From IMG/VR virus record IMGVR_UViG_3300037245_003526, positions 24,297 to 88,296 of that record: 64,000 nucleotides of DNA; one strand, written 5' to 3'. The stretch is from a virus. Positions within the stretch are counted from its first letter, which is position 1; the number at the start of each line of letters is the position of its first letter. The position numbers were made by a program, and so were the translations under genes. Of this stretch, positions 9,401 to 55,336 are shown one piece after another. The notes under the pieces were generated by a model that was not told where the DNA came from, did not search any database, and saw only the letters and a list, made by a program, of their open reading frames with translations.

Positions 9401-9552
9401 ACTTCAAAACCAATATCAGCCACAGGTGCTATAATCACTTTAATATCTTCTAATAAAGAACTATATTCATTAGCTCTTATATCAAAAATATTCTTCTCTG
9501 CAAGTTTATAAACTGGATTAGCTATATTCAAAAGTACTCCTCCTTTCAACAA
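6493..9552 (-). CDS. Multisubunit RNA polymerase beta-subunit homolog (set 1).
   Basis: It carries GDKVGNRHGNKGVIS (the beta C-terminal catalytic-region signature) and MASSQMRQA (an NMQRQA-like motif). 1019 aa. Confidence 0.8.
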   Translation of the reverse strand: MLKGGVLLNIANPVYKLAEKNIFDIRANEYSSLLEDIKVIIAPVADIGFEVVECEFKEPRFSTGDISRTLKKTLSIRLQKGTSLINLSIQIPKLIDNNYIIINGRKKIPQFQFFDIPVVTRGKSIKLRTNVTQIMVFEDRKDSPYTYISILGRKVPLHLVMFAYFGVEEMNNKFKLSSLNSDSFSNDGMYGAFLKDILDFYDENKRTSQDDIIKELGRHYSKYNAKGKGEDLVFALDLIMKCDVMTSRFFHTDSVLDELIYTMESGGFDDTDMQNKRIRCFEYMILSKVSKIIFDFCITNRTARQPKFNVNSTQILSECNVSDIIQFDFSINPIEELTKLSRTSLVGPGGFNKQNVPEHLRDINDTMFGRICPVDTPDRENCGVLQNLIPNVPLDENLRFTNEYLEKQPISIPVSMVPFLEHDDQTRLQMASSQMRQAIMLQNFDVPMIQSGCEGLYTDKTQFVKVAKEDGEVVYLDEKYLILAYDNEEVDIFNISYRKIYISNLDVLKIYVKFGDKVSKGQIIAESNYCTDNKINIGKNLLTAVMEWYGYNYEDGIVISERLRDDNVLTSVHYMDLSFTIPPHKLLLSLDKNVFKPLPTREDRIKKDDTYAIIKTIPSNQQEFLDIFKQEKNLYARKNLYITECNIFANEWNEDVPEYKEWVEKKITDQQEKETDLRRVISEHLPKKEAIKFIKDNELDTHANIGKFKIKNEKINGIFVELFAIFFRPIQVGDKVGNRHGNKGVISTIVPHEKMPQLPDGRHVDICINPLGIISRMNIGQLYELHLAMSLSDLRKYMKLILDRKIKRVEGLDDAQIQKMLKLYLLNYIKIIDRTDGGWYYEQFNQQLPGEITEKFIDSIVLIQPPFESVDLDVTRKALEYTNTEFKREVYEPIAKEIIKNRIAVGYMYFFKMVHISETRLSARGIGSYARKTLQPLAGRKHGGGQRSGEMEMACLTGHDASANLFEFLTTKSDCIDLKNEFIRTKIDSDFMKDDKEQSIIPESVRLLNAYLKAIGVER

Positions 9553-9932
9553 TCATGACCCCTTGAGTGTATAAGAAAATTCATCTCACTGTATTCTCTT
9601 GCTATTTTTCTCCTAATATTTTGCTCTATATTTTTTCTAACGCGTTCATAAAAATACTTTTCAGCATCGTATCCAAAAATAATATCACCTTCTTTAGTAA
9701 CCATATGAATTTTAGCAATAAGAATTTTTACATTAATTTTTTGCATAAGTGTTTGTATCAACGTAGCTGAAATATCAGGAGATAGAGCAGCAGAAAAAGA
9801 TATTATTAAAACTTCTGGTTCTAAAGATAATACCGCAATCTCAGAAACTATAGATTGATATATACCATTTTCTATAATCTGTATTTTAGTAGAACAATGT
9901 TCCTTAATTATTTTTTTAATTTTTTCAATCAT
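9546..9932 (-). CDS. Small hypothetical protein between RNAP beta-prime and beta.
   Basis: The ORF-track start at 10112 overlaps beta-prime by 170 nt. An internal Met (MIEKIKK) preceded by AGGGGAGATTTT at about 9932 is a more plausible start. Confidence 0.35.
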   Translation of the reverse strand: MIEKIKKIIKEHCSTKIQIIENGIYQSIVSEIAVLSLEPEVLIISFSAALSPDISATLIQTLMQKINVKILIAKIHMVTKEGDIIFGYDAEKYFYERVRKNIEQNIRRKIAREYSEMNFLIHSRGHDC

Positions 9933-9942
9933 AAAATCTCCC

Positions 9943-27721: not shown

Positions 27722-27937
27722 CTATCCTTCGTAAGTAATTCTTTTTTCTTTATTCCAAAGTTCGTTAGGATAACACATGTTTATCATCCTTTCCGCTTCT
27801 TCAAAAGTATCATAAGAGTACGGTTCAGATTTCTTTCCAGATGGTTTAACTTTATGCCACCCCCTCTCACCATCATTATTGATACTGAAAACTTCCATAT
27901 AAAATTTAATGACCAATACCTCCTTAGTATCCTTCAC
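27722..27937 (-). CDS. Hypothetical small protein.
   Basis: 71-aa ORF. Confidence 0.3.
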   Translation of the reverse strand: MKDTKEVLVIKFYMEVFSINNDGERGWHKVKPSGKKSEPYSYDTFEEAERMINMCYPNELWNKEKRITYEG

Positions 27938-28241
27938 AGTCCACTATTTGTATTCCTTCTGTTTCCTCCAAAAATTCCATCAATACTTCATCCTGTACAC
28001 AAAGATAATGAACCTCTTTACCTTTAGCTTTCATTTCAATTGCTTTTCTATGAAATTTATCAGATAAGAACCAACCTTCTTCCACTGCACCCTTCTCTAT
28101 TTGTTCATCAGTTAACTTTATAATCCTATAAAGTTTAGAAGCATTGAAGTTAGAAATTATATCACCCCCTTCTTTTCTTGAATCTGAAAGTAAAAATGTA
28201 ACAGAGCTACTATTGGTTACAAAATCTCCTCTTAATTTCAT
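27924..28241 (-). CDS. Member of the MKxKGDFVTNSSS family, with the variant motif SSSVTF.
   Basis: It starts MKLRGDFVTNSSSVTFLL. Confidence 0.6.
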   Translation of the reverse strand: MKLRGDFVTNSSSVTFLLSDSRKEGGDIISNFNASKLYRIIKLTDEQIEKGAVEEGWFLSDKFHRKAIEMKAKGKEVHYLCVQDEVLMEFLEETEGIQIVDCEGY

Positions 28242-30533: not shown

Positions 30534-31238
30534 TTAATTACCTCCTTTCCCAGCTTCTGGTTTTAAATATAGATTAATATTAAAAGTACCTTTTTGTCGA
30601 TTTAATGACTTTGTTTCTTTATGTCCATGAATGGTTAGTCTTCCGTCTATTTCCTTATTCCATACCTCTCTTTTTCTAAGTTCTTCAGCAGAATAACAAT
30701 CAGAGGTATTTGCATAATAACCCATAGGATCTCCACCGTTCCAACCATCTCCTCTAGTTTCATTAACTGTTTGATCATATTCAACCATTATTTTTTCACT
30801 ATCAAAATTTTCAAATATTTTTGACATAATTAATTTAAATGTATGATAAGGCATTTCAGTTTTTGGTGAAGTTGTATTTGGTGATAATCCTTCATACTCG
30901 ATTTTTATTTTTGATCCATTTTTTTTAACTCTAACTTTATATGAACCACATGCACCACAATTTTCACAATCTATAACTTTACACATTTCTTTATCTTTCA
31001 GAGTATATCCATCTTCGAACTGGTCAGGATTTCTAATGAAACCTTCAAATTCAAGATTATCATGTTTAATTTTTAGAAATGATGAAAAACCTTTGAATTC
31101 AAGATCATTGCTCATAACTGCAGAAATAAATGATGGAAGATCTATTTCCTCATCTGTAAAAATATTTGTTTTTCCAATTCCTTTTAAAACAAATGATGTC
31201 GAACTACTATTAGTTACAAAATCTCCTTTTATTTTCAT
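30534..31238 (-). CDS. Member of the MKxKGDFVTNSSSTS family, long form.
   Basis: It starts MKIKGDFVTNSSSTSFVL and has the C-terminal GDGWNGGDPMGYY motif shared with 21992-22690. Confidence 0.6.
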   Translation of the reverse strand: MKIKGDFVTNSSSTSFVLKGIGKTNIFTDEEIDLPSFISAVMSNDLEFKGFSSFLKIKHDNLEFEGFIRNPDQFEDGYTLKDKEMCKVIDCENCGACGSYKVRVKKNGSKIKIEYEGLSPNTTSPKTEMPYHTFKLIMSKIFENFDSEKIMVEYDQTVNETRGDGWNGGDPMGYYANTSDCYSAEELRKREVWNKEIDGRLTIHGHKETKSLNRQKGTFNINLYLKPEAGKGGN

Positions 31239-45054: not shown

Positions 45055-48000
45055 TTATCTCCAAATCATTAAACTTATAAAGTATGAATTTAATAAATCT
45101 CTTACCGGTGCATGTTTAGGAGGTCTATACTTAGCACCACCTGTTTGAATAATATCAGATAATATTTCATTCTTTGTTACATGATCATCAGATAAAGGAC
45201 CAAAAAATTCTTCTAGTAAAGAAGGACAATTATAAGAAATAAATGAATACGTATCTAATTCACCCATTCTTTGACCACCGTCTTTTCTTTTGCCGGCAGT
45301 AGGTTGAAATGTCTTGGATGTAATAGGTCCAGTACTTCTAACATGAAGTTTTTCAGATCCTATATGTTCAAGTTTAAGCATATACAAATATCCAACTGCT
45401 ACTGGATATTTTGTTGTTGTATTATACTCTGGAAGTCTTAATTTATATCCAGGTTTTAATTTAAGTGCTTTTAAAGTAGCTAAAATTTCTTTATAAGATG
45501 GAGCTTTAAAAGGAGGAATTAATAATGTCATACTCCCGCTAGCTTTTACTTGACTAATAAATTTAGTAAACATAGCAGCAGACATACCTCTAAATTTAGA
45601 TATAAGACCCTTACTAAATTCTTTATTTTTAGTAGTATCAAGTTTAGGTAAGACTTGATTCAATAATGCCACTACTTTTGGTTTATTATTTAATTTTATT
45701 ATTTGTCTTCCTAACTCATGCGAAATTAAACCTGTATATGTTTCATAAAACTGACCAACATTCATTCTTCCTATAATACCTACAGGATTTAAAATAATAT
45801 CTATTCGATCTCCAGTTGGGGAAATAGGCATATTTTCATCTTTTTCAATTAATGAAATAATACCCTTTGCTCCATGTCTATTAGTTAACTTATCACCAAC
45901 CATAACTGGTAGCTCTTGTTCTACTTTAAATCTTATAACAACACCTTTTACATTTTCACCCCTATTAGTAAATTTTTCTTTAGGTTTTAGTTTATATCTT
46001 TTTCTGGTTCTATCAACAAGTGGTTTCAATTCTGGAAATATACTTTCTCTTAAATTAGAAAACACTTCAATATCAACAATTTTCCCACCTGGTGATTTTT
46101 TAATATAGTGTCCTGCTATGATATCAACACCTTCTTCTTCCTCGTCATAACCTATTAATTGCTCGATTTCACCCACTGTTTTTCGTATTAACACTTCACC
46201 TTTTTCAGTTTCAGCACCTAACTCAACCATTTTTATAATTCTATCACCTTTATCAATTTGTACTTCTTCAACTATTCCATGAAGTGATGTAAGGAGTTCT
46301 TTCTTAACAACTGATTCTGAAATAACAATACCATCCTCAAAATTATGACCCTTATAAGGCATAAATGCTACACATAAAGTTCTACCTAAAGCTATAGATC
46401 CAGAAGTAATACATGAACCCTCAGCAATAATTTGTTTATTTTTAACAACCTGACCAACTTTAACTACCGGTTTGAAAACACTTAAAGTATTTTTTCCAGC
46501 TCCTGATCTAAGATGAACTGGTACTATATCAATCTTATTAGTCTTCCCACCTGTGCAAGTAACACTAATAAAATCCTCAGTAATATTTTTTATTTTTCCA
46601 TTACATGGTGATCTTTTAATAAATGCATCAGATAAGACACTAGTTAATATTGATTCATATCCTGTTTGAATAGATGGTGTTTCTGGATTCTTTAGTGGTA
46701 CAGACTGTCTTTGCTGATTACATCCAAACATAACTCTGTTACCATCATTATTTTCTACAAAAGGAATTTGAGCTGCAGTAGTTGAAAGTAAACCAGAATC
46801 TTCTCCTTCCTTAATACCTTTTGGAGTTATTAAACCTCTTGCTGATGTAATATATGCATCAACAGTAAGCTGCTGAACTATTCCTACATTTTCACCTTCT
46901 GGTGTATCTAATGTATCAATATTTCCATACATAGATGTATGGACATTTCTTCCTTCCATTTGAATTGCCGTCTTATCAGGTATTCCTCCAATTGATTTAC
47001 CTACTGGAGATATTCTTGTTTTGGTAGCCATTTCTTCAACTGGATTTGCATATTCCATATCAACAACAATTTCTGAATTTATAAATTCGCTTAATACTTT
47101 TGTTGGAGATAATTCAAAAGTTGCTTTCTTGTTTCCGGATAATACTTGCTCTTTATATTCTGTATATGAAGCTAATATTTGTTTTTGTGCTAGATGTACT
47201 AAAATCTCAGAGTTTCTTATTCTTTGATTTGAGACATCATTTCTTTTTTGTGTAAATCCTTCAACTGCTTTAGACGCCATGTATTTCATTATTAAATCAA
47301 GATTACTTGGTAATTGTTGATTTATAAGAACTTGTTTAGCAACCGGATCAACAATATTTTCTAAGTTTGATTGGATTAAAAATGTAGAATTTATTCTTCC
47401 GCTCATTTTTATTATAAGATCATTAAAATATTCTTTTGTACCAAATTCTTTATCTATTTTAAATGAAGAAATATTAGCATGTATAAAAGATTGACATAAT
47501 TCTTCTTGAAGTTTAGTTTCAGCTCCATTGAAAACTATATATTTATTCGGTTCAATCAAAGATCTAAATTTTTCCTCTTTTGGACGTTCCTCTTCAAACT
47601 TATGGGTTAGATTATATAATTTTAATGTTTCTTTAAAACCAAAACTAAAAGCAAGTAGTATCATTAATGGAAGTTTATAAGAACCAATATAAGCTTCTAA
47701 GTATTCTTCTCTTATAGTTCTCTTACTCCATATATGAAATGTAGAATAACTACTTTCAAATTTTGAGTCAAATTGTTTAGGAAATGAAATAGGATTAAGA
47801 ACTATTTGATTAATTAAACATTTCTTTCTACCATTAACAAGAAATGTTCCATCTTCTGATATCTTAGGTACATCTATTCGAACTACATGTTTTTTATTAT
47901 ACATACCTGTTAATGTTACTTCGACAGTATTTATATCTGATCTACTTAGTTCACCCATATTAGTTGGTTTTTCAATTATTTTAATACTCTTATAAGTTAG

Positions 48001-49143
48001 TGGAACCTCTTTAGTTTTTAGAACCTTAAATGAGTTTGCCATATCCTTTTTAAGATTAGTTTCAAAATCAATTTTTCTCTTCTCAAATAAATGTTCAGGA
48101 GACTTATTATCAACCATTTTTGGAGCATTAGATAATTGTATTACTACATCTCCTGAAGTTGTTTCAGTCTTTTGAGGTTTTAGTAGTTCATCAGCATATT
48201 GTCTATCAACTACTTTTAATGAAAGTAATTTCTTAGCTTTAGGAATAGATTTAGCAGTTCTAGATGCCTTTTCAATATCACCTGAAGTCCTGTATAATAT
48301 TGAAGCAGTTGCAATTTCTCTAGCATCATTGTCATCAACTAAATCATAAGTAACCTTATCCATTTCTTTTTTATTTTTTGTAAAAAAGTCATAGATAGCA
48401 GCAAAAATTTTAGACCTATTAGAAGGACTAACGTCTCCATCAATTCTTCTCATTATAGAGGATGTAGCAAGACTAATTTTCTTATGTTCTTCTTCTTCTG
48501 TATCTATAAGTTTTATATTCTTTAAAAATTGTTTAACCCTTGTAAATTTGAAGTCTTTGTCTTTTATAAGCAGTCTATAATTAGATGAAGATTCATTTAT
48601 AATATTCATAATCAAATGATCATAATTAATTTCTTCCTTCTTTAAATCAAGTAATAAAGGAAATATCTTTCTATCAATTAGACTCTTTGTTTCTTTAGTA
48701 GCATCAACTGAATATAAAAGAACTTTCTGATAATTTGGAGGGAAACTACTTAGAACTTTTAAAAGCATATTTTTAATTAAGAAACCTGCTCTTTGTCTAT
48801 AATTAGTAACCTTGTATGATATGTCTATTGTATTTAAAAAACCGGAAAGGTCATATACTAAATTTTGTCCCTTTGGTACTTTCTGGTTAGAACTTAAAGC
48901 AAGTAAACTATGACTTTTATATAAATTCTTTATATCAGGAGTTAAATAAGAAATTGGAATCTTTGTACGCGGAACTATTACATACCTAACATCTATTCGT
49001 TTCAAATTCAACTTTTCGTAATCATCTATAAAAGATGAATTTTCACTAAAATAGATTAATAAAAAAGGTTCTTTTCTATTTTGAGGAAAACGAATTCCAT
49101 CTACTAGATGTGTATATTGTCTTATTGATTTGAATTGAATCAT
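45055..49143 (-). CDS. Multisubunit RNA polymerase beta-subunit homolog (set 2).
   Basis: GDKLTNRHGAKGIIS, and CNQQRQS-like and other beta-region motifs. 1362 aa. Confidence 0.85.
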   Translation of the reverse strand: MIQFKSIRQYTHLVDGIRFPQNRKEPFLLIYFSENSSFIDDYEKLNLKRIDVRYVIVPRTKIPISYLTPDIKNLYKSHSLLALSSNQKVPKGQNLVYDLSGFLNTIDISYKVTNYRQRAGFLIKNMLLKVLSSFPPNYQKVLLYSVDATKETKSLIDRKIFPLLLDLKKEEINYDHLIMNIINESSSNYRLLIKDKDFKFTRVKQFLKNIKLIDTEEEEHKKISLATSSIMRRIDGDVSPSNRSKIFAAIYDFFTKNKKEMDKVTYDLVDDNDAREIATASILYRTSGDIEKASRTAKSIPKAKKLLSLKVVDRQYADELLKPQKTETTSGDVVIQLSNAPKMVDNKSPEHLFEKRKIDFETNLKKDMANSFKVLKTKEVPLTYKSIKIIEKPTNMGELSRSDINTVEVTLTGMYNKKHVVRIDVPKISEDGTFLVNGRKKCLINQIVLNPISFPKQFDSKFESSYSTFHIWSKRTIREEYLEAYIGSYKLPLMILLAFSFGFKETLKLYNLTHKFEEERPKEEKFRSLIEPNKYIVFNGAETKLQEELCQSFIHANISSFKIDKEFGTKEYFNDLIIKMSGRINSTFLIQSNLENIVDPVAKQVLINQQLPSNLDLIMKYMASKAVEGFTQKRNDVSNQRIRNSEILVHLAQKQILASYTEYKEQVLSGNKKATFELSPTKVLSEFINSEIVVDMEYANPVEEMATKTRISPVGKSIGGIPDKTAIQMEGRNVHTSMYGNIDTLDTPEGENVGIVQQLTVDAYITSARGLITPKGIKEGEDSGLLSTTAAQIPFVENNDGNRVMFGCNQQRQSVPLKNPETPSIQTGYESILTSVLSDAFIKRSPCNGKIKNITEDFISVTCTGGKTNKIDIVPVHLRSGAGKNTLSVFKPVVKVGQVVKNKQIIAEGSCITSGSIALGRTLCVAFMPYKGHNFEDGIVISESVVKKELLTSLHGIVEEVQIDKGDRIIKMVELGAETEKGEVLIRKTVGEIEQLIGYDEEEEGVDIIAGHYIKKSPGGKIVDIEVFSNLRESIFPELKPLVDRTRKRYKLKPKEKFTNRGENVKGVVIRFKVEQELPVMVGDKLTNRHGAKGIISLIEKDENMPISPTGDRIDIILNPVGIIGRMNVGQFYETYTGLISHELGRQIIKLNNKPKVVALLNQVLPKLDTTKNKEFSKGLISKFRGMSAAMFTKFISQVKASGSMTLLIPPFKAPSYKEILATLKALKLKPGYKLRLPEYNTTTKYPVAVGYLYMLKLEHIGSEKLHVRSTGPITSKTFQPTAGKRKDGGQRMGELDTYSFISYNCPSLLEEFFGPLSDDHVTKNEILSDIIQTGGAKYRPPKHAPVRDLLNSYFISLMIWR

Positions 49144-49149
49144 ATTCTA

Positions 49150-49899
49150 TTACCTGTTCCTATATGTAGAGCTTCCAAGTCTTGTTGATCTTCTTTCACC
49201 TTCTTTAAGTGTTCCTGTCATAACTCGTTCTATTATTGAAGTTTCTACTCGTTCTTCAGAAATTAAACCAGTCTTAATAGCATCATTAATATTCTCAAAT
49301 GCTAGACCGTTTATAAATCCTTCTGAGAATATTACCTTCTTTAAATTAACCAAAACAGGATCCCATTTTCTAGCAAGTCTAGCAGGTTGTTGTAAATTAT
49401 TCTTGTCCCTTAAAACCTGACTACAAACAACCTCTAAATGAACAGCATCCATATCAGAGTTTTTAGCATATACAGCTAATATTTTTCTAAATAAATGTGA
49501 TGCATCCTTTAATAGTTCTCTACCACCTATAAGTCTTTCAACATAAGCTATCTGTCCCTTTATCTCCGCTGCCTCAGTCGAAACTTCAAGTATAGTTGAG
49601 TTAGCTTCATATTGTAATTTTATATATTCCCTTCCTATTTTTTCAAGTTCATATACCTTTAACTCAACAGAATAATCCAATGTAATATCAATAATCTTAT
49701 CACTAAATTCTGCTTTTGATATTAAAGATTTAACCCATATCTTACCATTCTCAATTCGCATATTCTCTTTATCATATTGTGTCATGTCCAATGTAATCGT
49801 ACATGGCTTAATAGCAACTAAAACATTCTCTTCCTGCTTTAAATATTCCTTTATTTTTTTTGCCATTATAATTATACCCTTTTTGGATGAGTCTTCCAT
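49150..49899 (-). CDS. Hypothetical protein between RNAP beta and beta-prime of set 2.
   Basis: 249-aa ORF. Confidence 0.4.
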   Translation of the reverse strand: MEDSSKKGIIIMAKKIKEYLKQEENVLVAIKPCTITLDMTQYDKENMRIENGKIWVKSLISKAEFSDKIIDITLDYSVELKVYELEKIGREYIKLQYEANSTILEVSTEAAEIKGQIAYVERLIGGRELLKDASHLFRKILAVYAKNSDMDAVHLEVVCSQVLRDKNNLQQPARLARKWDPVLVNLKKVIFSEGFINGLAFENINDAIKTGLISEERVETSIIERVMTGTLKEGERRSTRLGSSTYRNR

Positions 49900-50174
49900 A
49901 ACTTTCTATTTTCTTCTTTTCTTCTTTTCTCTTCTTTTTTACGAGCTTCTATCTTTTTTATTTTATCTACGTTTTCTGATTTTTTAAGATTAAGTTCCTT
50001 TTTTTGTTTTTTATTTTTTGCTTTTACTTTTGCTATTTTATATAATGTAGAAGTACCTATTCCTGCAGCAATTATTGCAGATAGCGAAATACCATGTTTT
50101 TTTGCTAATCTCTTAATTTTATCTAATTTCTCACCCTCTGTTTGAATACAACTTAAGTAATTTTCAAGTATCAT
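49872..50174 (-). CDS. Small basic K/E/R-rich protein.
   Basis: 100 aa (KKEEKRRKEENRK). Confidence 0.3.
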   Translation of the reverse strand: MILENYLSCIQTEGEKLDKIKRLAKKHGISLSAIIAAGIGTSTLYKIAKVKAKNKKQKKELNLKKSENVDKIKKIEARKKEEKRRKEENRKLWKTHPKRV

Positions 50175-50176
50175 TT

Positions 50177-52522
50177 TTATACCTCCAATCCTGATAAAGG
50201 ATCGTTATTTATAATATCATTTAACATTTCTCTTTTAATTAATGTGACTGCTCCACCAGTATGGAAGCTACGCATAATTAATTGAGTCCCCCTCTCTCCA
50301 ATTATTTGAGAAGCTAATATTCCAATAAAAGGAGTTCGGTGTCTATTTAATAATTTTCCATAACATGTATGACAAATTTTAGCTGACTTACAAAATACTG
50401 GACTTCTTAAATTAACTATATCTCCAACTTTAACTTTTGATGCTTCAATAGTCATTAATTTTCCATTTTTAATAACATATCTACCAGATAATCTACTTAA
50501 TAAATCTGCAGTAAGTTTAAGATCTAAAGTACGTTTAGTACCACAATCTTTAAGATTTCTATTAATCTCAACTGTATTTAATAAGTAAGCCAATTTTCTC
50601 GACATATATCCTGTATCAGCAGTATTAATAACACGGTCAATAGTTCCTTTACGAGCTCCTTGAGATGCATTGAAATATTCTACATTAGTAAGACCATCTG
50701 CAAATGAACCTGAAATAGGATCAAGAATATTTCCATCAGAGTCTCCAATAATTCCCTTAGCTACAAGAATTTGCATTGGTTGACCCCAACCCTTTGTTGA
50801 TCCAGATTCAACTAAATCACCAAATCCTGTATCTTTTAATTCTTTTTCTACTATTTTTTGAGCTTCAGCAAGTAATTTTTCTGCTTCTTCAGGAGTAGCA
50901 GTTTTTAATTTATCTTTTATTACATATATTTTTTTAGGGAGTTCAAAAGTATCTAAAGTCAAGCTTGGAGCTCCTATAGTTACCCATTTAAATCCTTCCT
51001 CTTTTAATCTATCAATAACCTTCATTGTTACTTCTTGACCTAGTTTATTAAAAATCTTTTCTATCAATTCGCTAACAACTTTTTTAGTAGCTATCTCATT
51101 TACAAATGGTATAACCTTAGGTAAACAACTATTGAATATTGCTCTTCCTGCTGTAGAAGTAACTCCTCTATATCTTACAGGTCTATAAATTTCACCTGTA
51201 TATTTTTGTAGTTCTTCAGTAGTTACCGCAATTGATGGTTTAGAAACTTTTTTATTTTTTGTTAAAATATAAAACCCACCCCACATTTCCTTCTTAAAAT
51301 CAAAAGCAAATTTTCTAGATGAAGTTCCGCTGGTAAGTCTCATCATTTTTTCTCTTGCTTCTGTTTGTGCTTCATCAGTAAGAGGGTGAAATACAGCAAC
51401 TGTGTCACCGTCAAAGTCAGCATTATGAGCCTCGACTTGGACAGTTGACATTAATATAGTATTACCTCTATGTAAAACAGGATTATAACCTAAATAACTT
51501 TGTGTTTGTAAAACAGGATCTCGTTTTAGAACTATTACTCTACCCTTCATTGCAACTTCAGTAGCTTCATAAAATAACTCATATAAAGTCACTGGTATTT
51601 TATCACCTTCTTTAATAGATTTAATAATTTTTTTAACACTATCAACTGATAATTCAAGACCTGTATATTTTTCTACCTCTTCTGCTAGTATATTTTTATC
51701 CACTTTTCCTGAATATAATAATCTATGCATAAGAAATGGTTCGAATAAACCAACTGCCATTCGTAATGGAATACCTGCTTCATTAGTCTTCATTTCTGGA
51801 CCTGGACTAATAACTGCTCTTCCACTAAAGTCTACACGTTTACCAAGCATAAGCTTTCTTACAATACCAGACTTTTTACTTATTTTAGATCTAATAAAAT
51901 TATCATGTTCTAAAATAGCATTTTGTAATGCATAATTTAAAAGATCATAAAGCGGACCAGAACCACTAGAACGAACTTGAGATGCTCTTCTCATAACTGT
52001 AAGATAAACATCATTCAACGGATCTATCATCCAATTACCATCGTCTTGTCGTAATGCTGGTCTTAAGTCAGGAGGAATGACTGGTAACTTATCTAAAAAA
52101 ATTGTATCTCTTTTATTCTCTTTTTTTAGAAAATCTATAAGCTTATCTCTCGTTTCTGTTTCCCCGCGAAATTTAATCTTTGGAAACATTTTTATAAACT
52201 CTTTAATTCCAGTTACTCCACCTCTATCTACCATCACAAGTTTTTTCTCTTCATCTAAAATAAACGATCTTTCAGTTGATAAAAATTTTTCTATTTTCTT
52301 ATCGAGTTGAAGTATTATTCTATAAGCGGCAGGATGAATTATTTTAGCATTTAATTCAATATATGAAAAGATCAATCTTCTTTCTTTAGAACCTTCTGGA
52401 CCGAAAATTCTTTCACTAAAAAGACCATTCTCATGAAATCCTCCTGATCTATCAGTGGATAACATAGATGTAACCGGATTAAGATTCCTAATAAAACCTT
52501 TCAAAGAAATAAGTTTTAGCAT
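50177..52522 (-). CDS. Multisubunit RNA polymerase beta-prime-subunit homolog (set 2).
   Basis: The catalytic NADFDGD, and a trigger-loop region CHTCYGKLLNRHRTPFIGILASQIIGERGTQLIMRSFHTGGA. 781 aa. Confidence 0.85.
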   Translation of the reverse strand: MLKLISLKGFIRNLNPVTSMLSTDRSGGFHENGLFSERIFGPEGSKERRLIFSYIELNAKIIHPAAYRIILQLDKKIEKFLSTERSFILDEEKKLVMVDRGGVTGIKEFIKMFPKIKFRGETETRDKLIDFLKKENKRDTIFLDKLPVIPPDLRPALRQDDGNWMIDPLNDVYLTVMRRASQVRSSGSGPLYDLLNYALQNAILEHDNFIRSKISKKSGIVRKLMLGKRVDFSGRAVISPGPEMKTNEAGIPLRMAVGLFEPFLMHRLLYSGKVDKNILAEEVEKYTGLELSVDSVKKIIKSIKEGDKIPVTLYELFYEATEVAMKGRVIVLKRDPVLQTQSYLGYNPVLHRGNTILMSTVQVEAHNADFDGDTVAVFHPLTDEAQTEAREKMMRLTSGTSSRKFAFDFKKEMWGGFYILTKNKKVSKPSIAVTTEELQKYTGEIYRPVRYRGVTSTAGRAIFNSCLPKVIPFVNEIATKKVVSELIEKIFNKLGQEVTMKVIDRLKEEGFKWVTIGAPSLTLDTFELPKKIYVIKDKLKTATPEEAEKLLAEAQKIVEKELKDTGFGDLVESGSTKGWGQPMQILVAKGIIGDSDGNILDPISGSFADGLTNVEYFNASQGARKGTIDRVINTADTGYMSRKLAYLLNTVEINRNLKDCGTKRTLDLKLTADLLSRLSGRYVIKNGKLMTIEASKVKVGDIVNLRSPVFCKSAKICHTCYGKLLNRHRTPFIGILASQIIGERGTQLIMRSFHTGGAVTLIKREMLNDIINNDPLSGLEV

Positions 52523-53063: not shown

Positions 53064-53579
53064 TTACTTTATAACATATTTTCTAACCATTGATTCTACA
53101 ACAGCAGCATCAACAAAATTACCTGGACATGTAAGTTCTTCATCACTTGAAACTTCACTATGAAATTTAATCTTGCTAGGAGATAAAGTAAACATCTTTA
53201 AAAATGGATTCAGAACTCTATATGCAAGAACTTCATAACATCTTTTTTCTGGAATTTTAAAATCATAGTTACCCATTAAAGCTACATGGATTGCATTGTT
53301 GTTTATATCAGAAGAGATGTCATCCCAATCACATAAATAGACTGATGGACGGCAAATTATTGGTTGGTAATCTTCTTTAATTTTATCTATTACATAGTGA
53401 TAATTTATATCACCTTGTTTCTTTTCTAAAACTCCCTTAGTTAAACCAGGCATCTGAAATTTAGAATTATCAATTCTTGATTCAGGGTTGTCATATATTT
53501 CAGAGGTATGATGGAGGATAATCCATCTCACTTTTCCTCGTCTTACTTTGAACATACTTGGTTTAAATGGTATTTTCAT
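53064..53579 (-). CDS. N-acetylmuramoyl-L-alanine amidase of the Amidase_2/PGRP family, T7-lysozyme-like (cell-wall hydrolase).
   Basis: WIILHHTSE, NYHYVI, NAIHVALMGN, and KFHSEV...CPGN parallel the T7 lysozyme zinc ligands His/His/Cys and its core motifs. Confidence 0.65.
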   Translation of the reverse strand: MKIPFKPSMFKVRRGKVRWIILHHTSEIYDNPESRIDNSKFQMPGLTKGVLEKKQGDINYHYVIDKIKEDYQPIICRPSVYLCDWDDISSDINNNAIHVALMGNYDFKIPEKRCYEVLAYRVLNPFLKMFTLSPSKIKFHSEVSSDEELTCPGNFVDAAVVESMVRKYVIK

Positions 53580-54412: not shown

Positions 54413-55336
54413 TTACCTTTCTCCACTAGGTTTATCGGGTGTTACTCCAGATGCTAGAGCAGCAAAACCTCCGCTATTTTCTGAGACAACAGATCCATCT
54501 ATAGTAACTGGTCCAGCCGATTGAATAGCAGTATTTTTTATAGATTTTAGATTCATAGATCCATTTGCTTGATCATTAATATTAGCTCCTGCTTTTCTTT
54601 GAATACCTGTAGCAGCTTCTTGAAGAATTTGAGAAGCTTTTATTTTCAAATCTCCAGTAGCTTCAATATGAATATTTTTTGCTTTTATTTTTAAATCTCC
54701 AGCCATTTCAATATTAAGAGTTTTATTCTTAATATCAAAATTGATATAATCACCAAAACGAGACTTTATTAAAATTTTCTCATTAGCATAAGCTCCATCA
54801 GTTCCTGGTCTTTCATCTAATAAAATTGTATTCTGATTATTAGTTATTGTATAAACTGAATCTGTATCTCCGCTTGGTGGTTCTTTTATCATATGTTTTT
54901 TTCCAGTTATTTCAACTCTAGCATCATCAGGATCATCTGAAATAACTATGCATCTTCCATCATGTGATTTAAATATTACCCATTTATCTTCATGATCATT
55001 TCCGAGTTGACATTCAGGTAACACTTTTGCATTTTCAAGATCACAAGCAGCAAAATAATATGGTTTATTAATATTTCCAGCTTCAAAAAATACCCAAACC
55101 CAACTTCCATTTTTTGGAATATAACATGTACCCATAAACTGATGTTCAGGGTCATCATTTTCATTTCTTCCACCAATAGGATTATTGGCAGGTCTAGCAA
55201 GAAGTCCAGCATTTTCTTCAGTAACTTCAGGCATTATTTGAGGAATCCAAACTACTACTCTTCCGAAAAATTCAGTATCCTTATTTCCTATAACCTTCGC
55301 TCTATAAAATCCTAGTAGTCTATCTCCGACATCCAT
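54413..55336 (-). CDS. Baseplate central spike / cell-puncturing protein (gp5 or VgrG-like OB-fold plus beta-helix).
   Basis: N-terminal FYRAKVIGNKDTEFFGRVVVWIP fits the gp5/VgrG OB-fold pattern. The C-terminus has repeats GDLKIKAKNIHIEATGDLKIKASQI typical of spike beta-helices. Confidence 0.5.
   Translation of the reverse strand: MDVGDRLLGFYRAKVIGNKDTEFFGRVVVWIPQIMPEVTEENAGLLARPANNPIGGRNENDDPEHQFMGTCYIPKNGSWVWVFFEAGNINKPYYFAACDLENAKVLPECQLGNDHEDKWVIFKSHDGRCIVISDDPDDARVEITGKKHMIKEPPSGDTDSVYTITNNQNTILLDERPGTDGAYANEKILIKSRFGDYINFDIKNKTLNIEMAGDLKIKAKNIHIEATGDLKIKASQILQEAATGIQRKAGANINDQANGSMNLKSIKNTAIQSAGPVTIDGSVVSENSGGFAALASGVTPDKPSGER

Follow-up and report, generated by a model that had tools for sequence, protein, structure and literature searches.

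A likely virion-type RNA polymerase operon of an uncultured jumbo phage, with beta-prime as a gene in pieces and a hypervariable cassette slot at the break

The virion RNA polymerase (RNAP) of phiKZ-like phages (gp178, gp149, gp180 and gp80 in phiKZ; gp240, gp42, gp244, gp241 and gp218 in SPN3US) is the second of 2 phage multisubunit polymerases, is packaged, and is made in 5 pieces, one of which is a free-standing C-terminal part of beta-prime of ~240 aa. In SPN3US this beta-prime C subunit is gp244, identified genetically and by proteomics (PMC5694885). The pieces of jumbo-phage polymerases have been viewed as remnants of a pre-cellular multi-piece enzyme (PMC7824862), while an opposing view holds that the splits are secondary and perhaps arose through mobile introns (PMC7598289). 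Here we describe a locus in a 64,000-nt stretch of viral DNA (positions 24,297 to 88,296 of the IMG/VR record IMGVR_UViG_3300037245_003526, hereafter the window), which has a G+C content of ~30% and carries almost all of its long open reading frames (ORFs) on the minus strand. The genes of the locus form an operon that encodes a bacterial-type multisubunit RNAP, made of three polypeptides, of an uncultured, AT-rich jumbo phage (244.5-kb contig). Like the phiKZ-like virion enzyme it is the second polymerase of its phage, has a free-standing beta-prime C with the same starting point, a long N-terminal extension on beta, and virion, tail or lysis genes as neighbours. It consists of 3 pieces rather than 5, with the N-terminal and middle parts of beta-prime fused (781 aa) and the 2 parts of beta fused (1362 aa), and it is broken only where the phiKZ-like beta-prime divides into its middle and C-terminal pieces. 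It also differs in being much closer to bacterial beta-prime (PDB matches of the 781-aa protein at E 1e-61) and in having close relatives that are still unsplit. Taken together, we consider the locus likely to be an operon for a virion-type RNAP in which beta-prime is a “gene in pieces” and its break has been turned into a hypervariable cassette slot.

The 4 ORFs of the locus are tightly packed in the gene order beta-prime N, cassette ORF, beta-prime C, beta. The original prediction for this DNA had correctly described ORFs of 1362, 249, 100 and 781 aa, which all lie on the minus strand, and had rightly called the outer 2 homologs of beta and beta-prime, the former carrying Rpb2 and the latter Rpb1 domains in Pfam searches; that this is a second such pair is also borne out by a first beta-prime/beta pair elsewhere in the window (Table 1). 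It had further proposed that 2 small genes separate the subunits and that these encode an unknown 249-aa protein and a highly basic 100-aa protein, candidates for accessory or promoter-specificity subunits specific to this polymerase set. Two ORFs do lie there, but the 249-aa ORF belongs to beta-prime itself: it encodes the C-terminal ~230 residues of that subunit, comprising the second half of the trigger loop and the conserved C-terminal region, a conclusion drawn from colinear alignment, a match to phrog_2926 and a fold match to the AR9 polymerase.

Relatives of the locus were gathered from IMG/VR, JGI metagenomes and an exact-protein look-up, and ~14 distinct relatives among them (loci are designated L001 and so on) encode a single beta-prime of 998-1008 aa with beta directly next to it. 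The 781-aa protein is colinear with residues 1-781 of these intact homologs at 51-57% identity, and the 249-aa ORF is colinear with residues ~782-1004 at ~50% identity when read from its Met12 codon (49866), which matches the start of all homologs (MAK... or MKI...). Met12 is therefore almost certainly, to judge from these alignments, the true start, giving a protein of 238 aa, and with this start the overlap with the 100-aa ORF disappears. At the junction the intact form reads ...NNDPIADLD-MSTLKKYIVQEGG... (MSTLKKY), while the window reads ...NNDPLSGLEV followed by a stop codon and then MAKKIKEYLKQEEN... (MAKKIKEY), with no residues lost or gained; intact alleles such as that of L002 contain GATTTAGATATGTCC.

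The 781-aa protein matches Pfam Rpb1 domains 1, 2, 3 and 5 (E 6.5e-25 at the lowest, and 2.1e-20), which marks it as the first three quarters of a beta-prime subunit, contains the catalytic NADFDGD motif and the bridge-helix region, and terminates in a 24-residue tail just past the first trigger-loop half. Its Rpb1_5 match breaks off at profile position 100 of 267. The 238-aa protein begins with a beta-rich insertion domain (roughly residues 1-105) at the position of sequence insertion 3 (SI3) of bacterial beta-prime, continues through the second trigger-loop half to the conserved C-terminal motif (region GLAFEN...TGL), and ends in a basic tail. This additional tail of ~14 residues is present on beta-prime C of the window's clade and not on intact beta-prime, and it adjoins a second insertion hot spot described below.

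Profile and structural comparisons agree with this assignment. The 249-aa ORF matches phrog_2926 at E 3.2e-7, with its residues 14-226 aligned to positions 11-238 of the 241 in the profile. A scan of reference proteins assigned SPN3US gp244 to this family (E 1.2e-94), and the C-terminus of the intact beta-prime of L002 matches it as well (E 6e-7). A PDB sequence search with the beta-prime C profile alone returned no match. In an AlphaFold (AF2) model of P0065, a 366-aa homolog that spans the junction, a confident beta-rich domain (pLDDT 85-96) lies between the 2 trigger-loop halves. The best PDB match of the model by Foldseek is the beta-prime chain of the AR9 non-virion RNAP (nvRNAP; 7s00_F, probability 0.99, E 5.6e-5), with a weaker match to the SI3-tail domain of a cyanobacterial (Synechococcus) polymerase (probability 0.77). 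The AR9 chain is likewise the C-terminal part of a split phage beta-prime, but it shares 14% identity, is split at another position and belongs to the non-virion class; poor prediction of half of the model keeps the global TM-score low. In a profile search of 1.84 billion representative proteins, the beta-prime C module was free-standing (~220-240 aa) in ~19 clusters and part of intact proteins of ~1000 aa in ~15, with many others of intermediate length, which indicates that fission states are common and diverse. The practical consequence is that “hypothetical proteins” of ~230 aa beside truncated rpoC-like genes should be annotated as beta-prime C fragments.

The position of the break can be stated closely. 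The 781-aa protein can be aligned through its residues 559-765 with residues 714-947 of E. coli beta-prime, and an alignment that ends at about E. coli residue 947 puts the break at the SI3 site in the trigger loop, between the first trigger-loop helix (FHTGG) and the beta-rich insertion domain. The SI3 of E. coli and cyanobacterial beta-prime is also a beta-rich insertion at this trigger-loop position, here represented by a single domain of ~110 residues. The cyanobacterial rpoC1/rpoC2 split is a different one, located after the catalytic double-psi beta-barrel and not at SI3 (PMC7598289). Both halves have their own stop and start codons. Rfam searches of the whole window (gathering thresholds) and of 49000-50600 (up to E = 5) returned no intron, and neither intein blocks nor extra residues relative to intact homologs were found at the break. 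Since there is no intron or intein signature and no residues have been lost or added, the 2 beta-prime products must assemble unjoined, in the manner of the divided subunits in phiKZ-like and AR9 polymerases (PMC8287921, PMC7598289), and by its gene structure beta-prime here reads as a “gene in pieces”.

Table 1. Positions of the polymerase genes, their parts and other features in the window (1 = first letter of the stretch)
Feature	Position	Strand	Basis or remark
beta-prime N-terminal fragment, 781 aa	50177..52522	(-)	ORF list, Pfam, PHROG
catalytic NADFDGD, residues 367-373	51404..51424		in 781-aa protein
first trigger-loop half, GERGTQLIMRSFHTGG	50252..50299		in 781-aa protein
24-residue tail, AVTLIKREMLNDIINNDPLSGLEV	50180..50251		in 781-aa protein
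100-aa cassette ORF	49872..50174	(-)	ORF list; inside beta-prime break
leader, MILENYLSCIQTE	50136..50174		in 100-aa ORF
Gly/Ala-rich, moderately hydrophobic segment	50034..50090		in 100-aa ORF, after leader
Lys/Arg-rich helical tail, 53 residues	49875..50033		in 100-aa ORF
249-aa ORF	49150..49899	(-)	ORF list; gene proper almost certainly 49150..49866, 238 aa
second trigger-loop half, YVERLIGGRE	49516..49545		in 238-aa protein
conserved C-terminal motif, GLAFENINDAIKTGL	49264..49308		in 238-aa protein
basic tail, RRSTRLGSSTYRNR	49153..49194		in 238-aa protein
beta, unsplit, 1362 aa	45055..49143	(-)	ORF list, Pfam, PHROG
beta N-terminal extension, ~300-400 aa	47850..49143		within N-terminal ~430 residues of 1362-aa protein
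GTFxVNG...INQ motif, GTFLVNGRKKCLINQ	47806..47850		in 1362-aa protein; bacterial-type
first set, beta-prime, 909 aa	9943..12672		complete
first set, small ORF, ~129 aa, MIEKIKKIIKEH...	9546..9935	(-)	between intact beta-prime and beta of first set
first set, beta, 1019 aa	6493..9552		
two ORFs upstream of beta-prime N	53064..53579 and 54413..55336	(-)	weak likeness to Amidase_2 hydrolase and baseplate hub/tail lysozyme
paralogous ORF 1	31238..30534	(-)	multi-copy family, 105-234 aa
paralogous ORF 2	28241..27924	(-)	same family
paralogous ORF 3	27497..27087	(-)	same family
paralogous ORF 4	23035..22700	(-)	same family
paralogous ORF 5	22690..21992	(-)	same family

Which of the 2 phage polymerase classes this set belongs to was judged from 7 PHROG families, all but phrog_2987 identified by scanning reference proteins. 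Every virion-type family scores higher with the second set, described here, than with the first: phrog_2986 (SPN3US gp240, virion beta-prime N) at 160.6 versus 88 bits, phrog_2962 (phiKZ gp80, virion beta-prime middle) at 92.7 versus 74.9, phrog_3148 (SPN3US gp241, virion beta N) at 181.3 versus 73.3, and phrog_2926 (SPN3US gp244, virion beta-prime C) at 31.1, the last not being seen in the first set. The strongest annotated matches of the first set are instead phrog_3015 (phiKZ gp74, non-virion; 130.7 bits versus 119.5 for the second set), phrog_2987 (122.5 versus 86.5) and phrog_3295 (phiKZ gp71, non-virion; 119.2 versus 142.9), and because the beta of the second set tops that of the first on the non-virion phrog_3295 too, the separation is clear for beta-prime and less so for beta. 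On balance we favour the second set being the virion-packaged type of polymerase, since its best profile matches are to the virion-RNAP families of phiKZ and SPN3US, the genes upstream are tail- or lysis-like, and the N-terminal extension of its beta resembles gp241. Further support comes from one family of small proteins (75-79 aa) encoded at the break in relatives, all 3 members of which match a “virion structural protein” PHROG (best E 1.9e-5).

The beta subunit itself is unbroken, matching Pfam RNA_pol_Rpb2_6 (E 2.7e-51) and Rpb2_3 and, at residues 1170-1339, phrog_3233. Its long N-terminal extension, which precedes the bacterial-type GTFxVNG...INQ motif, is shared by 13 relatives, in which it is conserved with a mean column identity of 62%, while Pfam and the PDB hold no match to it; the SPN3US virion beta-N protein gp241 has a comparable extension. 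The first set also has a small ORF, of ~129 aa, between its intact beta-prime and its beta, for which we found neither a PHROG match nor the leader motif discussed below. Searches of GenBank phages by megablast (with the region) and by tblastn (with the 249-aa protein) gave no match, and the 781-aa protein alone matched distant polymerase genes at ~25% identity. Scans of the locus for sigma-70 promoters and terminators did no better than on shuffled sequence, which is not relevant to a phage with its own polymerases.

The content of the gap between beta-prime N and beta-prime C varies widely among relatives. Beyond the ~14 relatives with an intact gene and no gap, the gap is empty in 2 (L045, L047), where TAA is followed by ATG directly or 2 nt on; it holds one Cys-rich ORF of ~90-110 aa only in L020, one small basic ORF in the window, L001, L041 and L042, one 114-aa ORF in L033, 2 to 4 ORFs in L004, L006, L014, L018 and L019, at least 6 or 7 in L021 and L022, and a 681-aa nuclease-like protein (DUF7487 plus a REase-like region) in L046. 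The closest relative, L042, has 94.1% nucleotide identity to the window as far as the stop codon of beta-prime N; identity resumes, at 93.2%, one base ahead of the beta-prime C start codon. The 229 nt that separate these points in L042 are unrelated to the window and encode a basic protein of 75 aa. L042 also carries an 846-nt HNH gene after beta-prime C and before beta, which is absent from the window. In L041, similarity to the window extends only 38 nt into the small ORF and then ends. An otherwise same polymerase evidently works with the gap empty or very differently filled. The family of 75-79-aa slot proteins (L042, L021, L022) had no tblastn match in GenBank phages.

Both the beta-prime N/C gap and the beta-prime C/beta junction are insertion hot spots, holding from none to at least 7 ORFs. 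HNH genes lie in the gap itself in L018 (340 aa) and L021 (316 aa), between beta-prime C and beta in L006, L021, L022, L040 and L042, and after beta in L041, and either HNH genes or nuclease-related ORFs with the Cys-rich module of these genes occur in or beside the slot in L018, L021, L022, L006, L040, L042 and L046. The Cys-rich ORFs of ~90 aa in L004, L006, L014, L018, L019 and L020 are free-standing copies of the N-terminal module of these HNH endonucleases. In the mechanism we propose, cassettes would be exchanged by recombination or homing between co-infecting relatives, with boundaries that may lie at the beta-prime N stop codon on one side and at the end of a 13-codon leader or the beta-prime C start codon on the other.

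Seen against this variation, the 100-aa ORF of the window is best described, from its distribution and sequence, as a dispensable, exchangeable cassette and no conserved polymerase subunit. It looks like a real gene, since a GGAGG lies 7 nt upstream of its ATG and since, in L041, the peptide encoded by the first 13 codons remains conserved through 5 synonymous changes. The product is very basic (pI 10.2, net charge +19) and is predicted by AF2 to be all-helical, with 3 helices; its leader is followed by a Gly/Ala-rich segment, whose maximum Kyte-Doolittle hydropathy of 1.35 over 19 residues is below the usual transmembrane threshold, and then by the Lys/Arg-rich tail. It matched nothing except itself among 5.8 billion proteins and had no Pfam or PHROG match above noise. 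The JGI label “predicted transcriptional regulator” attached to it found no backing in any family search. Other slot proteins have a similar hydrophobic-plus-basic layout, with a ...YYLYKK motif after the hydrophobic segment, and some of these related proteins give weak matches to spanins and holins (E 5e-4 to 0.1) that look compositional.

What the occupants of the slot share is their beginning. A leader of ~12 residues, M-(I/L)-x-x-Y-L-x-x-(I/L)-(Q/N)-(E/D), opens 12 slot ORFs from at least 8 unrelated families and none of ~311 other ORFs in the window and the relatives' loci. Among the tagged proteins are a SET-domain protein of ~113 aa (L021:1658-1999 and L022:3815-4153; Pfam 29.8 bits versus a cutoff of 22.4) and a 260-aa M48 peptidase (L001:7691-8473, E 3e-24), and some leader-bearing cassettes lie downstream of beta-prime C. 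The leader DNA and the regions upstream of it vary between cassettes. Between the window and the 166-aa ORF of L041, codons 1-13 differ by 5 synonymous changes and 1 nonsynonymous change, and codons 14-21 by 1 synonymous and 6 nonsynonymous changes, which implies that the leader peptide is constrained and that the cassette-specific part starts directly after it. In sequence, the leader of the window (ENYLSCIQTE) is similar both to the first residues of beta-prime C (KEYLKQEE) and to the corresponding segment of intact beta-prime (KKYIVQE, VKYLEQQE). Most cassette leaders end in LNE, LQE, LIE or INE; that of the window has ILE at residues 2-4 and IQTE at residues 10-13. A leader conserved in this way would be a functional peptide tag.

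The internal proteins of T4 (IPI, IPII, IPIII and Alt) offer an analogy, being small, very basic and hypervariable with a short common leader, as the slot proteins are. They are diverse, with the leader alone conserved, and their leaders are propeptides of 10-20 residues that the prohead protease cuts at sites such as ITE and LTE (PMC5694885, PMC3012670). The cassettes differ from them in sitting inside a polymerase gene and not at a separate locus, and in having a leader that is also beta-prime-C-like. We presume in addition that the slot leader is similar to the T4 leader sequence itself. By this analogy, the slot leader fits a capsid-targeting or propeptide tag. The likeliest function we can propose for the 100-aa protein, a tentative first choice put forward by analogy, is that of a small, very basic, leader-tagged protein that would be synthesized alongside the virion polymerase, loaded into the head, and ejected together with the polymerase. 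A broader version of this idea, which we hold to be doubtful as it stands, is that the break would be a dedicated landing pad where genes for leader-tagged proteins of many kinds (a SET methyltransferase, an M48 peptidase, small basic proteins and others) are exchanged as an arsenal, and that the beta-prime-C-like tag of ~12 residues would direct these proteins into the capsid, alone or riding on the virion polymerase, to be injected with the DNA. If that were true, it would constitute a previously undescribed counterpart of T4 capsid targeting that is physically coupled to an injected polymerase, and the polymorphism of intact and split alleles, at the very site where phiKZ-like enzymes are permanently split, would show in addition that the fragmentation of jumbo-phage polymerases is derived and not primordial. 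The shared leader may also be a new protein-delivery tag, of interest for phage biology and engineering.

Several observations weigh against this picture of a virion-type operon with a slot for tagged cassettes. The virion assignment is one of relative profile scores, and the second set also matches the non-virion phrog_3015 (119.5 bits). When beta-prime C profiles were aligned by hhalign with the single proteins phiKZ gp74, gp79 and gp80 and SPN3US gp244, probabilities were at most 0.4%, and because this direct comparison found nothing, the link to gp244 runs through the PHROG profile only. The leader pattern was derived from the same ORFs that it counts, so that only its empty background is independent. 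The leader of the window ends in IQTE, which departs from the (L/I)-x-E spacing of most other cassettes and of T4 cleavage sites. The available sequence yielded neither a prohead protease nor a capsid gene. An hhalign comparison of the 100-aa protein with other small slot proteins aligned the hydrophobic segment only (P = 0.0045, probability 7.7%) and left any homology past the leader statistically unsupported. The gap in the window holds the 100-aa ORF only, with no endonuclease or remnant of one. Finally, intact alleles already have a Met codon at the future beta-prime C start, and a stop mutation before this pre-existing Met could equally have made the split, with cassettes arriving later.

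Of the other ways to understand the 100-aa ORF, the one that survives best is that it is selfish or neutral cargo, either debris or a passenger left by homing endonucleases, or a small membrane-active gene, unlinked to polymerase or virion, and that the leader survives only as a recombination arm or a translation-initiation region copied from beta-prime C at each insertion. The hypervariability of the slot and the frequency of endonucleases in it suit this idea, the homology between the window and L041 ends exactly after codon 13, as a cassette boundary would, and related slot proteins give the weak spanin and holin matches. We nevertheless think it doubtful, because the peptide is kept across at least 8 families while leader DNA and upstream regions differ, which bespeaks selection on the peptide, and because the hydrophobic segment falls short of the transmembrane threshold and the spanin and holin matches are compositional.

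A more specific proposal would be that the leader mimics the N-terminus of beta-prime C and that cassette proteins dock on the tail helix at the C-terminus of beta-prime N, near the trigger loop and secondary channel, either as optional polymerase-bound modulators or as passengers that the polymerase carries into the capsid. The AF2 model of P0065 has the tail helix of beta-prime N (127-134) directly followed, within one confident domain, by the helix equivalent to the leader (140-146), and the likeness of the leader to the beta-prime C start and to the internal segment of intact beta-prime, together with purifying selection on it, is what such mimicry would call for. The SPN3US virion polymerase is also known to assemble before packaging (PMC5694885). 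Docking in place of beta-prime C, however, would yield an inactive enzyme, the similarity between leader and beta-prime C spans only ~5 residues, and leader cassettes occur downstream of beta-prime C too, and we regard this possibility as unlikely.

The reading with which the analysis began, in which the 100-aa and 249-aa proteins are accessory or promoter-specificity subunits of this set comparable to phiKZ gp68 or AR9 gp226, has become very unlikely. It could draw on the placement of the 100-aa gene inside the polymerase operon behind a strong ribosome-binding site, on a very basic, helical product that could bind nucleic acid, and on the use of phage-specific extra subunits by jumbo-phage polymerases (PMC8287921). 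Against it, the 249-aa protein is a core fragment of beta-prime, and relatives with polymerases 50-94% identical either lack the 100-aa ORF, have another in its place or carry several ORFs there; it has no homolog elsewhere, and the comparison speaks against a required or set-specific subunit, although a looser, dispensable association of the 100-aa protein with the polymerase is possible. The pull-down suggested as a check would not separate the 2 ideas, since the 238-aa protein as a core piece would be expected to co-purify either way. The weakest alternative, that a group I or II intron, an intein or programmed bypass removes the interruption and that the 100-aa ORF is an intron- or intein-encoded product, is scarcely credible in spite of the introns reported in AR9-type polymerase genes, the proposal that intron mobility gave rise to splits (PMC7598289), and the inteins and split-intein-like arrangement elsewhere in the beta-prime gene of relatives, given the Rfam and intein negatives described above, an insert filled by an ORF with its own ribosome-binding site, halves with their own stop and start codons, and clean splits in relatives that read TAA-ATG and leave nothing to splice.

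Returning to the gene in pieces, its history can be viewed beside that of Aeh1 nrdA, which is cut by the homing endonuclease mobE into 2 colinear ORFs of an essential enzyme that assembles unspliced (PMC3045599), as we predict here. The break in nrdA is occupied by a free-standing endonuclease, as it is in several relatives of the window, while the break of the window holds a small basic ORF only. The 2 cases differ further in that there are no new junction tails here, the extra basic tail being at the far C-terminus of beta-prime C. In a rough neighbor-joining tree without support values, split genomes appear at about 4 positions among intact ones, and split alleles share the tail ...LEK*; the history may be either one of repeated fission or of one split allele spread by recombination. 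In this phage family both polymerase types are largely unsplit, and an intact or a divided beta-prime is the one difference between close relatives. The family shows fission of a polymerase gene in progress at a site that is fixed in the phiKZ-like virion polymerases, and with the cut at the phiKZ-like virion-enzyme cut site and endonucleases and inteins in the same gene, a secondary origin of such splits becomes directly testable.

Other insertions affect the same operon in relatives. Two beta-prime genes (L029:395-4543 and L019:1009-4497) have an in-frame insertion of ~380 aa inside the trigger-loop motif (GERGTQLIMK / CSDGLVHY... / TFHTGG, slashes marking the boundaries), which from its sequence resembles an intein. 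A break at the catalytic motif divides beta-prime in L031:2965-6672 (NADFDGD / SCQVDIIYY... and ...GVYIQD / TMAIYHP), where 117 nt lie between the ORFs, an arrangement with the likeness of a split-intein “fractured gene”, and that operon is flanked by HNH genes. Most split relatives (L001:8461-8820, L004:14462-14818, L006:8787-9140, L014:5967-6326, L018:3570-3926, L020:6733-7080) have a conserved staphylococcal-nuclease-like ORF of ~118 aa (Pfam SNase, E 5.6e-9) that runs into the start of beta and that the window lacks, and L006 has 2 paralogs of ~450 aa in the gap between beta-prime C and beta.

The weak likenesses of the 2 ORFs upstream of beta-prime N (Table 1) suggest that the polymerase operon borders a virion or tail module. 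Two homologs, P0058 and P0060, are on NCBI contigs binned with Heimdallarchaeaceae and Thermoplasmata metagenome bins; these contigs are probably phage DNA mis-binned from sediment metagenomes, because the polymerase is bacterial-type and has a GGAGG ribosome-binding site. Elsewhere in the window, scattered among replication and recombination genes, 5 paralogous minus-strand ORFs of 105-234 aa form a multi-copy family, all of whose members start with MK(I/L/Y)(K/R)GDF(V/I)TNSSSTS(F/Y).

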